From assembly GCA_041690295.1 (NCBI GenBank), contig JAWLHR010000003.1, positions 158,305-222,304 on the forward strand: a stretch of DNA of 64,000 nucleotides, given 5' to 3'. Shown in pieces: positions 60,001-64,000 of this stretch. The DNA is from Bdellovibrionales bacterium. GTDB taxonomy: Bacteria > Bdellovibrionota > Bdellovibrionia > Bdellovibrionales > UBA1609. The position numbers are program-made. Each line of letters starts with the position of its first letter. Within the stretch, counting starts at the first letter, position 1.

Positions 60001-63000
60001 TCTTCAACACAATTCTAGGAAGTGACCATGGATCTCAGACGGCTTGGCTTAGCTTTGGCTTTTGGCCTTTACTTTCCCGCGGCGATCGCGTTTCCCGCCT
60101 CCCAGGAGCCTTGGTACCTTACGGAGTACGAGCGCGTCCGAACCGTGATTCATATGATCAACGGCGTGCCTAAAGAGTCCATCCATGGGGAATTGTACAT
60201 TTCGTTTGATGGTAAGTTAGAGGATTTCGTCAGGCATGTGAACCAGACGTTTTTTAAGGCCGGCTTTCCGCGCTTTAAAACCGTGCTTGCGATGGCCGAG
60301 TTTGAACGCGAGGAAACCTGCTGGCAAGAGGCCGGCTATTATCTTCGATACAGACATTTTGCCCTCACCACCAATTGTCTCACCGGCGTTATCATAAAAG
60401 CCCGCTATGTTTCAGCCGTGGAGCGAACCAAGGCCGCTGAAGCCGAAGCCAAGGCCAGGGCGAAAGCCAAAGCCAAAGCTGAAGCCGCGCGAGCTAAGAA
60501 CCGCCAGAAAGCCGCACCACCGCCGCAAAATAACAGTTGGTGGCCGGTGTTTCAGCAGTGACTGGCTGATCTTGTATACCCATAGCTACTTAGCGCCAGT
60601 TGTTTGAAATCAATTCTATTGTTATTTAGTCATGTATAAGTATAAACTTCCGCGGAATTCAGGGAGATTTACGATGTCAAAAGCTACAAAAATCGTAATT
60701 GCAGTTCTTAGTTTTTTTGGTCTGATGGGAATCGAATCAAAAGTAACGGTCAATAACGAGCTATCTCCTTCAACTGAATCGTTAGATACCGCAAGCCAGA
60801 AGGCGCAGATTCATGATGAAGGGCTGGACCTCGAAGTTTATCGGGGTCAGGTTTTTTATGAAGCAAGAGTTGACTGGCAAATCGAATAAGGAATTCATTC
60901 TAACGTCCATTCTAAAAGGGAGCTGGTTCGCAAATGAGCTGGCTCCCCGATACAAGGACCGTCTTTCCGGCGCGGTCGTCGGTCAAAATTCCGCGATTGA
61001 TCTGACTTCCCTGGCTTTAATCTACTACGGACATGTCCATAATCCTCGTGAGATCGACGGCCTGAGCGAACAGCGATTTTTCAATCCAAATCAAGCAAGC
61101 CGGGAATCCGTGTCACTCTTATCAAGACTCGAGAAAATGGTGTTCTCGGATAAAGAAGGCGCGTTGGTTGAGTTCTCGGAAGAGGAGTCGGGAAAATTGA
61201 CCGCAGCCGGAGACCAGTTATTGAAATGTTGGCCTGACATCGCCCGCTCTTTTCCGCTTTTGTCGATTTTTGTGCGGGTCACGAATGCACCCGTACTGGG
61301 CGCTTCTTTTCCTCATAGTTTTGGCGCGGTTTTTTATGGTGATAATCTTTCCCGTATATCCGTGGATGAACTCAGTGTTTCTCTCGCGCACGAACTGGCT
61401 CATCACGAGCTATTCCTGATTAATTTATACGACAGGCTGGTTGTTCCCGAATATGATCACAACCTAAAGTACGCGCCTCTTCAGAAAAAGGAGCGTCCAC
61501 CGATCGGGCGACTTCACGCCTTCTATGCGCTTTTTCGCATGATACAGGCGAGGAAAAAACTCGGACTCTCAATTCGCAACGAAATGGACTTGTTAGATGA
61601 AGCCCAAAATTCACTGGACGAAAAAGAATTTACGGAATATGCGTCGCAGATTAAGAACTCCGTTATGGAAGCGGTTACTCGTCTGTAGTTGCCTATTGAT
61701 ATTTCCTTATAAGGGAGAATCATTGAAAGAGTCGGCGCCCAAATCCTATTCGATCGGATATGTTCCACGGACTTTTCCAAGAGATCCTGTGGAAATAAAC
61801 CAATTTCTTGAACACATGTTTTTGGGACAAGTTTTAGAACCGATCGTGGATTCCGACCGCTACGGACAGGTGGTCGGGGGTGTTGCGAAAGCCTGGACAT
61901 TTGATGAATCCGGCAAACGGATGACGTTCACTCTCAACAAAGGAAAGGTTTTCTCAAACGGTGTTCCAGTCAGGCCCGCGGACGTGGTTTATAGCATCAA
62001 ACGCCATTTAGGGACTAAGTCGCAGTCGGCCCAGTTTTTGGCGGATATAGAAAGTATTTCGGAATCGGGCGACGACAAGGTTCTGGTCAAACTGAAAAAA
62101 TTCAATGTCGCGCTTATCAAAGCGCTTTCCCGGGATCAGCTCGGTGTTTTGCCGAAAAACTGGAAGTTCGATCTGAAATCAGTCGAGCCCTATATCGGGA
62201 CTGGGCCGTATCGGCTGATTCGGCAAGAGGGCGAGTGGTTCCTGGTTGCGAATCCGCATTATGAAAACAAAAACCAGCTGACCATTCCCAAGTGGAAAAT
62301 AAAATTCTTAAATAATTCGTTGAACTCAATCCCCGATGATTCGCTTCCCGATTATATTCCAGCCATCACCGGACTTTCTTTGGAAAAGGTTAAGAAGAAT
62401 AAGGATTTTAATCCAAAGGACTTCAAGGTTGAGCGAAATGTGAACTACTCACAGACGAGCTTTTGGATTTTTCCGACTTCGGATTATTTTAAAAACGAGG
62501 AGAACAGGTTTAAATTCGCGCGAATGTTTGATTCGGTGGTGGACAAATACAGTGCGGAGCAAGATCTAAAGCGCGCGACCGGTTTGATTCCGCTCGGGAT
62601 TTCCGGCCACAACACAACCAAAACGAGCCCGCCCGAAGGACAAGGGAAGCTGTCCCGCAAATTGATCGTGGCCAATCTCAAAGGCGTTTTTGAGCCCTTC
62701 TTTTCGTCGGAGGCCTTCAAAGAGTTCTTGAAAGCCAATGAAATCGAAGTGGAATATGTGCCCTTTGATCCGCCTACGCTTTATCAGCTTAAAGGAAAGA
62801 AAATCGATATCATCACCGGCAGTTGGGCCGGCGGGTTTTCCGATCCCACCGGTTTTTTGGGATTATTATCCCCCTTTTTGGGAATGGGTTTCGATGAATA
62901 TCTAGGTTCCATTTCGGCCGATCTTCAATCCGCCATAAGTGAGTCAAATTGGAGTTCACGGGCTGAGAAGTTCAAGCGGTTCGATGCAAATCTGGTCAAA

Positions 63001-64000
63001 AGCGGATTGTTAATTCCCGGCTGGAAAGTTCCTACTTATACGGTGATCAAATCACCGCTCAAATACAAGGAAGTGCAGAACCGCTACACCGAGCGATTCA
63101 TCAATGTTACCGCACAATAGAAAGTTCCGATTTCGGACCGTTTTGATGTTTGTTGGCGCGGTGGTGTCCAGCATCTACTTTTTGTTCTCATTTTCCATTC
63201 AAATCTATTCGGCATACAAAAGCATCGTAAGTGAACGTCAAAATTACCGGCTTATAATTTCCAAATCCCTGCTGGACTCCATCCGGCAGCCTTTAATCCA
63301 AGGGTCTTTTTTTGAAGTGAAGGCACGCCTTCAGCACAGCCTGGACAGGCAGGAATTGAGCTGTGTCGAAATGACTTTGGATTCATTCGAGTTTAAGGAC
63401 TGCCGGACTCCGAATCGGCGTAATCTCGTCTGGGAAGATTTAGATATTTCTTCGTTCGAAGAGATTGAGGGCTATCAAAGATCAAGCATCAGGATTGGAT
63501 TTGACGAGTCAAATTTAAAGGCCATAGTCGCCCGGCAGGCTTTAATTGTAATTTCGATTTCGTTAATCGGAACCTTACTTCTTTTGTTCGGGATAAATTT
63601 AGTTTTCCGGTTGATTGGCCGGGAAATGAACCAACTCATGGGCACTATCGCAAAGAGCGGTGGTACCCCATATGTCTTTAAGACGCTGGAATTCGACGTT
63701 CTTCGTAAGAGATTAGAGGAATTGTTTTCCGTCCGCCTGAAACTCACGCAGGCCGAGGCCTTTTCGAATTTGGCAAAGCAAGTTGCTCATGACATTCGAT
63801 CTCCTTTATCGACTTTAAAAATTTTGTCGGCAAAGGACGTCGTGTCCGCCGAAGAGAATGACCTGCTCAGACTCGCGTGTGAACGGCTTGAGTCGATTGC
63901 CAGGCCGCGTCCCGTTCTTGGTGGAGATTGGCGAGGGTTCGCCAGGACAGGTAAATCTCCCATAATTCTTACGCCGCCACCTCGTCAAGTTCGAGTTGGA

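Follow-up and report, generated by a model that had tools for sequence, protein, structure and literature searches.

The window, i.e., the 64,000-nucleotide stretch of Bdellovibrionales DNA analysed here, ends in a cassette in which a signal-peptide ORF of 71 aa is followed by an aKG-HExxH enzyme, a solo family-5 binding protein and an interrupted kinase, and the explanation that we prefer for this locus, with a probability of roughly 0.5, is a modified-peptide signalling cassette. The genome-wide survey's note had placed an uncalled ORF of this kind ahead of an enzyme, a binding protein and a kinase, an arrangement that was borne out (ORF at 60674–60889, TIGR04267, PF00496 and a HisKA helix, respectively); no description of the cassette was found in a literature search. 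The block 60400..63900 exhibits a GC content of 0.45–0.49, compared with 0.53–0.55 immediately upstream, and the cassette is patchily distributed, being present in one of three other genomes of the same genus; the GC shift and the patchy presence indicate that this low-GC block was probably acquired laterally. Enzyme homologues (E ≤ 1e-5) were detected in 27 of the 401 genomes sampled from the phylum. A one-protein query of genome contigs returned 0 matches and an alignment query 37 loci, and the locus counts given below are based on 44 non-redundant loci that share ancestry, so that the counts are not independent. Ten weak enzyme matches (L048–L057) were left out of them because they fall in different clades, in some cases with a different gene order, and none of them has the core; marginal planctomycete, Nocardioides and Rhodovibrio matches (L087–L094) also stand outside these counts.

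The precursor gene (60674..60889, + strand), which belongs to no known family and has no match in family libraries, was recovered as P0054 among 46 family-profile matches. It starts at the ATG at 60674, with a Shine–Dalgarno-like GGAG 7 nt before it (60661..60666, + strand). Residues 1 to about 22 (60674..60739, + strand) constitute a probable Sec signal peptide, as judged from the sequence by eye and hydrophobicity scale: the n-region contains Lys, and the hydrophobic stretch reaches an 11-residue Kyte–Doolittle mean of 2.84, versus 1.08 in the enzyme, pointing to a Sec signal on the precursor and none on the enzyme. The cleavage site is less canonical than the A-x-A ends of relatives. The conserved core spans residues 51–67 (LDLEVYRGQVFYEARVD; 60824..60874, + strand). 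It includes Ala64 (60863..60865, + strand), which precedes R-x-D in the segment A64-R-V-D and which, in the register of PflA (PMC12636437, in its available part) and of Pro18 in PesA (PMC13060819, likewise), is the X of X-R-x-D and the predicted oxidation or cleavage site. The C-terminal motif described in the earlier note lies far outside chance expectation: the window core scores 26.6 on a profile built from 35 cores other than its own, and the runner-up among 3,415,081 stop-free six-frame 17-mers from the genome reaches 14.1.

Among relatives, this 17-residue core adjoins the enzyme in 38 of the 44 non-redundant loci, including L030, where it was recovered by profile scan; four of the other six end early downstream of the enzyme, and two have an opposite-strand match only. 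D(+3) is present in 36/36 cores, F(−3) in 35/36 and R(+1) in 32/36; neither His nor Cys is conserved in the core. The residue at X is Ala in 18 of the 38 loci, Ser in 7, Leu in 4, Lys in 3, Val and Pro in 2 each, and Gly and Met in 1 each. Ala occupies X in 14 of 42 short family representatives, which is the fairer figure; 16/36 is an overestimate, since alignment A5 holds 32 of these 42 and the nine relatives dropped as long, partial or divergent lack Ala at X. Variation at X and at neighbouring residues would provide strain-specific signals.

The core is packaged in three ways: behind a signal peptide, repeated 6–7 times in tandem (two loci), or as a bare micro-ORF of 19–24 aa with a Shine–Dalgarno-like site (10 loci). 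Therefore, the leader ORF of 70–100 aa that had been reported for all loci applies to one sub-group only, alongside signal-less and multi-core forms, and the existence of the core on its own in 10 loci identifies it as the functional unit. Packaging parallels export type, given that an MFS-like domain, in most cases joined to the kinase as a fusion, occurs in 10/10 micro-ORF loci and in 0/18 signal-type loci with a visible kinase N-terminus, a pairing that may trace to one to a few events because the loci are related. The MFS assignment is based on the Atlas (0.98), where the best matches are MFS in 10/10 cases, and on alignment with two stand-alone MFS_1 matches; for five fused domains, Pfam made no MFS call, the PDB profile search was negative and BLAST nearly so. 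No MFS–kinase fusion was found in a literature search. Multi-core loci also carry an epimerase/dehydrogenase-like gene.

The enzyme gene (60861..61688, + strand, with a longer start possible at 60813) encodes 275 aa without a signal peptide and scores 50.3 bits against TIGR04267 (cut-off 40). Its structure model (pLDDT 89.7) finds the ChlH structure 8s5f as best Foldseek match (E 1.7e-7, TM 0.61), and the metal-site residues H177, E178 and H181, together with a third His, H219, are invariant in 16/16 aligned enzymes, in agreement with the survey's HE-x-x-H-[QH]-[ED] pattern, which holds in the same 16. Family model, modelled fold and third His thus all assign this protein to the aKG-HExxH family. 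Orthology with PflC was not supported, as the enzyme falls in a separate clade (support 0.975) in a tree of 99 sequences over a 175-aa stretch with poorly resolved deep branches; the pairwise identity to PflC is 28% over 64 aa (E 0.002). In a complex model, the core docks on the enzyme with a score of 0.72, the best control reaching 0.02, at a mark attained by 116 of 157 solved pairs and 2 of 215 mismatched pairs. Between runs, at least 42% of the contacts coincide, and the partner pLDDT is at least 42. The first half of the core would lie on the invariant NLxDRL segment and the second half at the metal site, residues 60–68 contacting the enzyme near H177, H181 and H219, in a model that leaves the residue on the iron unspecified and the partner fold uncertain, and whose score solved HExxH structures may have aided.

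The earlier label "hydroxylase" may be wrong: the X-R-x-D tail, by sequence and analogy, points to oxidation at Ala64, and we consider it likely that the enzyme oxidises residue X. According to the available part of PMC12636437, PflC and PosC cut at the Ala of X-R-x-D and leave a C-terminal amide, Ser, Val or Gln at X block PosC cleavage, and the Pfl motif need not be terminal, with R, M and D each dispensable. Hence A-R-V-D plus a tail would be tolerated, and amidation would not extend to the whole family unless these enzymes differ; for the window copy, the odds of amide formation are about even. On the core profile, one Pseudomonas PflA-type tail is matched or exceeded by only 4 of the 3.4 million control 17-mers, and five other Pfl-type tails score much lower (3.6 to −15). 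Two other chemistries have to be weighed against cleavage by oxidation. In one of them, which is rather unlikely, the signalling circuit stays and the enzyme only β-hydroxylates X, the invariant Asp67 or Phe61, leaving the chain whole. The family usually catalyses this reaction (on His, Asp, Phe, Gln and Pro; PMC13060819, in its available part), over half of the loci have a non-Ala residue at X, and no core residues are better conserved than D(+3) and F(−3). Nevertheless, R-x-D is also conserved in Pfl substrates, where these residues are discarded, and PosC attacks the α carbon when X is Ala, as in the window, or Gly (both PMC12636437, in part). In the other, which we regard as improbable, the HExxH protein acts as a hydrolytic peptidase, maturing or destroying the signal by a cut before X-R-x-D that leaves a free acid, as PflC does at the same bond without a leader (PMC12636437, in part), and the micro-precursors are nearly leaderless. 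Against this, the enzyme resembles the oxygenase ChlH, and not ordinary zincins, in its fold and third His, and L-D-L-x-[IV]-[FY] seems, in the model, to be an internal recognition sequence. Moreover, the epimerase/dehydrogenase-like gene of multi-core loci, which presumably handles a ketone by-product, would by analogy fit oxidative cleavage.

Downstream, the solo family-5 solute-binding protein (61597..63120, + strand; PF00496, E 1e-25) has signal-bearing starts at 61597 or 61639 and a second in-frame TTG at 61723 behind a Shine–Dalgarno-like site. Opp/Dpp importer genes (permease, ATPase) are absent beside it, and a kinase or MFS–kinase follows instead, i.e., a kinase in 25 of the 31 loci with a binding protein, the other six being truncated. 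In the window, this is the N-terminal half of a sensor histidine kinase (266 codons, 63104..63901, + strand) with two TM segments, a periplasmic domain and a HisKA helix; the HATPase domain is missing, and full-length kinases of relatives measure 426–580 aa. The kinase had been thought to be cut off by the contig end. It is incomplete, but its homology already ends at 63901, and what follows, the final 98 bases, is a repeat (63902..64000) identical in 98/98 positions to the end of contig C26. One contig of an outside run (X1) bridges the junction and runs X2 and X5 show loose ends at 63902/63903; the repeat, which matches no plasmid record, probably represents one end of a mobile element. No separate fragment carrying the other half of the kinase was detected in the genome, but with a smallest contig of 16 kb this absence is uninformative. 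Since the kinase is interrupted, the sensing arm is probably inactive in the genome of the window.

A response regulator adjoins the cassette in 14 of 44 loci, and relatives such as L058 and L061 have the complete set of precursor, modifier, kinase and regulator; the window has no adjacent regulator. Of 8 tested loci with the regulator after the kinase, all from one clade, 7 have a sigma54 −24/−12 site 53–56 nt upstream of the precursor, and such sites occur in 11 of 33 upstream regions versus 78 of 9900 shuffles; none was detected in nine regulator-first loci or in the window. Thus, the candidate peptide-signal circuit of the earlier note is supported by the kinase/regulator context, though the signal role is inferred and the window kinase is interrupted, and we judge a signalling circuit to be probable. 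The product could instead act as an effector, for instance by binding metal or as an antagonist, and not as a signal between cells, with binding protein and kinase sensing the metal-loaded peptide or another cue that governs its production, which is an improbable reading. NikA is the top PDB sequence match of the binding protein, and four loci combine enzyme and core without any sensor genes, namely three Bacteroidota-type loci and L047, which lack binding protein and kinase (L045 and L046 lack the binding protein). L047 additionally encodes a JmjC oxygenase and an MFS exporter and resembles an ordinary RiPP cluster. Nonetheless, the NikA match is weak (E 2e-7) and about equal to those of MppA and OppA (E about 1e-7), the inspected cassettes showed neither an ABC permease nor a TonB receptor, and the core offers no conserved His or Cys. 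It is very improbable that the small ORF does not represent a gene, or encodes an unrelated secreted protein. The ORF is known from its sequence alone and lacks a library family, and a small domain forms in the 94-aa relatives (best structural match of this middle domain Z 2.9, Atlas blank), but the profile gap to the rest of the genome, the Shine–Dalgarno-like sites, the tandem arrays and the persistence of the core after loss of the signal peptide and the folded domain argue for a genuine precursor.

For the preferred modified-peptide signalling cassette, we propose that the cytoplasmic Fe(II)/aKG enzyme would bind the L-D-L-x-V-Y half of the core and oxidise the residue before R-x-D. Hydroxylation of Ala64 at Cα would cleave the chain, as in PflC/PosC, to give a peptide ending at a Glu63 amide and a pyruvoyl-octapeptide. 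The amidated peptide would exit by Sec, or through the MFS domain in micro-precursor loci, and would probably be trimmed. In the periplasm, the solo family-5 protein would bind it and switch the kinase, as CBP does with ChiS and LuxP with LuxQ, leading to phosphorylation of a sigma54 activator that may feed back on the precursor promoter in at least one sub-group. More tentatively, the family may represent a neuropeptide-like system of Bdellovibrionota, in which HExxH amidation, including that of prohormone-like precursors of 6–7 cores, which the enzyme would split into several units, export by Sec or MFS–kinase, and reading by binding protein, kinase and sigma54 serve strain-specific quorum or kin sensing in Gram-negative predators.

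To our knowledge, dedicated signalling by modified peptide, kinase and regulator is a Gram-positive hallmark, and a literature search found none in Bdellovibrionota. As the cassette brings together the enzyme, a substrate that can be as short as 19–24 residues, a putative receptor and a read-out at the promoter, both chemistry and function are testable with synthetic peptides, and the natural series of X residues probes α versus β oxidation. The authors of the Pfl/Pos study could not assign a natural function to its product (PMC12636437, in its available part). The recurrence of X-R-x-D suggests a general rule for HExxH substrates.

In relatives such as L058 and L061, the cassette resembles ComQXPA of Bacillus and staphylococcal agr in locus composition; a variable peptide and, in one clade, possible feedback would be further parallels. 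In these Gram-positive systems, which showed no homology in family scans, precursor, modifying enzyme, kinase and regulator also share one locus, but the chemistry is prenylation or thiolactone formation and the peptide binds the kinase directly. Control of a membrane kinase by a periplasmic binding protein is known from CBP–ChiS and LuxP–LuxQ (10.1101/2020.01.10.902320, in its available part), whose ligands are sugars or AI-2, in contrast to the locus-encoded candidate peptide of the cassette. The timing of modification, questioned because the precursor has a signal and the enzyme none, has a precedent: signal-peptide RiPP precursors such as DybA, ChrA, MelA1 and the bufferins are modified in the cytoplasm before export, although by MNIO chemistry on Cys motifs and with no dedicated sensor described in the available part of PMC13056109. 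The ChlH domain of ChlBH (8s5f) shares fold, HExxH, third His and R-P motif with the cassette enzyme, but is reportedly attached to a radical SAM enzyme and has a cyclophane peptide as its substrate. PesO of the nitrilobacillin cluster likewise oxidises the residue before R(V/T)D, hydroxylating the Pro that precedes R(V/T)DN, and 2/38 loci have P-R at X, a likeness by description; it differs in its Pro β-hydroxylation, its association with MNIO and a nitrile synthetase, and its Peribacillus host (PMC13060819, in its available part). The PflC/PosC–PflA/PosA systems of Pseudomonas have an NHLP leader (NF038399 on L099), poly-Gln, MNIO-nitroreductase, no sensor genes and enzymes of 367–386 aa from another clade, whereas the cassette precursors yielded no NF038399 match and no poly-Gln or MNIO-nitroreductase neighbour is present. 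Nevertheless, an aKG-HExxH enzyme stands beside its precursor in both, and the PflA tail, I-F-D-x5/6-A-R-M-D, runs in the same register as the cassette core.

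The four genes that close the window follow one another on the plus strand, with families matched for the enzyme and the binding protein, and the cassette described in the genome-wide survey's note is real. A small precursor ORF of 71 aa (60674–60889), for which family-model scans returned no match, is followed by the enzyme (60861–61688), which scores above the TIGR04267 cut-off, a solo binding protein matching PF00496 (61597–63120) and a kinase starting at 63104. GC content drops across this block from about 0.54 to about 0.46, and the enzyme is present as a single copy in the source genome. 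The note also described the kinase as cut off by the contig end; it is indeed incomplete, but homology to kinases stops at 63901, where a repeat shared with another contig, C26, takes over. The final 98 window bases are identical to the end of C26, one contig of the outside sequencing run X1 spans the kinase/repeat junction without differences, and the same repeat begins at that junction base in other sequence contexts in runs X2 and X5. In this strain the kinase is therefore broken by the repeat, which is probably a mobile element. Among the changes listed for related strains in outside runs, 19 of 24 in the kinase and 10 of 14 in the binding protein fall at third codon positions; another 32 changes lie beyond this listing. 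The window's copy is damaged, and the loci L058, L061 and L075 from other genomes or metagenomes are intact examples. Other damaged copies show a binding protein broken into two ORFs (L037:8135-9820) and a truncated enzyme beside a transposase-like gene (L131:3294-3932). Upstream and outside the cassette, genes for a Tad/TadE-like pilus protein (57007–59004) and a trypsin-like protein (59050–59949) have genome-typical GC, and a 544-aa minus-strand ORF (50399–52033) combines a signal-like start with QxW-type repeats, a Pro-Ala linker and a C-terminal domain rich in repeats; by eye, it resembles a lectin-bearing polysaccharide enzyme.

The enzyme was matched in 27 of 401 genomes of the phylum, and alignment searches yielded 33 metagenome loci and 37 genome loci, the latter with titles mostly of Bdellovibrionales, Bdellovibrionaceae, Pseudobdellovibrionaceae, Oligoflexia or Bacteriovorax and one of Tenacibaculum. 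Once near-duplicates were dropped, 44 loci including the window were kept, which form one group in the enzyme tree. The binding protein follows the enzyme in 31 of these; the kinase is visible in 27 loci, including 25 of those 31, the remaining six being cut short. No ABC permease was seen within the cassette. In 14 loci a response regulator gene lies alongside (10 upstream, 4 behind the kinase); three of four checked are sigma54 activators, and the fourth (L080) has receiver and Fis-type HTH domains only. Moreover, 23 of 28 binding-protein genes have another in-frame start, equipped with an SD-like site and located 10–21 codons before the FPRD motif, versus 51 of 992 control windows; in the window it is TTG 61723, beyond the signal-bearing start (region 61597–61725), and a cytoplasmic, signal-less form may be produced from it.

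The precursors share a 17-residue core, [LIV]-[DN]-[LI]-S-[IV]-[FY]-D-x3-F-x2-X-R-x-D, which adjoins the enzyme on the same strand in 38 of the 44 loci. Searching 1.84 billion representatives with a profile returned 46 matches, of which 42 are short proteins, the window's ORF among them; with a profile built without the window, its core scores 26.6, versus 14.1 for the genome's next best 17-mer. The claim that a hydrophobic-leader ORF of about 70–100 aa lies beside the enzyme in all loci holds only for signal-type loci, where a single core stands behind a signal peptide in 49–107 aa, but multi-core and signal-less forms exist. Long signal-type precursors contain a small folded domain (residues 31–80 of the representative P0019, modelled with pLDDT over 90), largely missing from the window precursor and L119. 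A second form carries tandem cores behind a signal peptide, seven in L041 and six in L042, next to an NAD-dependent epimerase/dehydrogenase-like gene that precedes the enzyme (L041:9410-11316, L042:9255-11057); by analogy, the product of this gene might reduce an N-terminal ketone remaining after cleavage. A third consists of bare core ORFs of 19–24 aa with SD-like sites, sought in intergenic gaps of loci seemingly without a precursor; they occur in eight of eight examined gaps before an MFS-like domain, and two more precede the enzyme. Finally, L047 pairs a signal-less two-core ORF with a stand-alone MFS gene and has no sensor, and in three Bacteroidota-type loci, which also lack sensor genes, the core opens a 60-aa ORF. 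In L083, L124, L128 and L130, all Bacteroidota-type, an N-terminal core with X = Lys lies in such an ORF, the enzyme is next and sensor genes are absent.

An MFS-like domain of 430 aa accompanies all 10 micro-ORF loci (fused to the kinase in eight, separate in one, cut off in one) and is absent from all 18 signal-type loci in which the kinase N-terminus can be seen, although kinship limits the number of independent events. One peptide with two export routes is the simplest reading; the domain could instead serve import or sensing.

By its sequence, the enzyme is an aKG-HExxH family member, and its model (pLDDT 89.7) matches ChlH and SjiH, with a sequence match as well. In the accessible part of PMC12636437, the Pseudomonas enzymes PflC and PosC make an oxidative cut at Ala in a terminal ARMD, with an amide and a ketone as the products; no single one of R, M and D is required, further residues may come after the motif, and Gly at the Ala position allows partial cleavage, Ser, Val and Gln none. 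PesO, of the nitrilobacillin cluster, hydroxylates Pro18 immediately before R(V/T)DN (PMC13060819, in part). Thus, on these excerpts, X of X-R-x-D is the site acted on by two characterised enzymes; the available part of PMC12257519 adds nothing further on the motif. The tail of the substrate PflA, I-F-D-x6-A-R-M-D, is in the same register as the core, and its seven residues recur exactly in L030, L036 and L037. Of 10 pattern matches, six Pfl-type loci were compared with the core profile: one tail scores 8.9, a value reached by 4 of 3.4 million controls, and the others 3.6 to -15. The enzyme is not a member of the PflC subfamily, and Pfl-type enzymes fall in a different clade, so that the likeness concerns the motif of the substrate rather than orthology of the enzymes. 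A Pfl-type cluster also occurs beyond Pseudomonas, in Rhodoferax lacus (L100:1921-5295).

A complex model of precursor residues 24–71 with the enzyme supports binding, scoring 0.72 versus 0.02 for the best control, a level that solved pairs attain in 116 of 157 cases and mismatched pairs in 2 of 215. Contact agreement among runs is at least 42% and partner pLDDT at least 42, so that the precursor's fold in the complex is uncertain. Residues 50–57 lie on the enzyme's invariant 188–194 segment and 60–68 near three His ligands, without a residue being placed on the iron. By analogy, the enzyme may work like PflC. The main argument against a family-wide amide is that 18 of 38 loci have Ala at X and 20 have another residue; for the window copy, where X is Ala64, amidation has about even odds.

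Modification in the cytoplasm ahead of export has a precedent in the accessible part of PMC13056109, and a kinase governed by a periplasmic binding protein has one in that of 10.1101/2020.01.10.902320. We infer that the modified peptide would be exported and then sensed. Upstream regions contain a sigma54 -24/-12 pattern in 11 of 33 cases, versus 78 of 9900 shuffles; the pattern lies 53–56 nt ahead of the precursor in seven of eight tested loci with the regulator behind the kinase, all close relatives, and is absent from the window and from all nine regulator-first loci. This suggests positive feedback on the precursor in the regulator-last sub-group.

The source genome holds further binding-protein/kinase pairs with different neighbours; the sensor module thus reappears with other modifying enzymes in place of this one. 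Labelled by eye, lower-GC cassettes with both genes lie at C19:21762-25920, C4:133462-137116, C2:28440-33060 and C14:72669-75572; in that order, the first has a 101-aa signal-peptide ORF together with a radical-SAM-like enzyme, the second a YcaO-like gene and the third a methyltransferase-like gene accompanied by an MFS-like one, and the fourth is a bare pair with an apparently split kinase. A sister cassette (L051, L053, L054, L056, L057) combines a regulator, a signal-peptide protein of 155–163 aa with a different C-terminal motif, a binding protein, a distant HExxH enzyme and a kinase. In family f20 (e.g., L156, L163, L168, L174), TIGR04267 is matched in 80 of 100 genomes, mostly by a different protein of 400–540 aa that contains HENGHH and whose gene neighbourhood looks conserved and shows no obvious precursor.

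Literature searches, with thin coverage of subscription journals, found no published description of the cassette, which represents a real, apparently undescribed variant of modified-peptide signalling. It would work similarly to the ComQXPA and agr systems without being homologous to them, relying on a binding protein together with a sigma54 activator.
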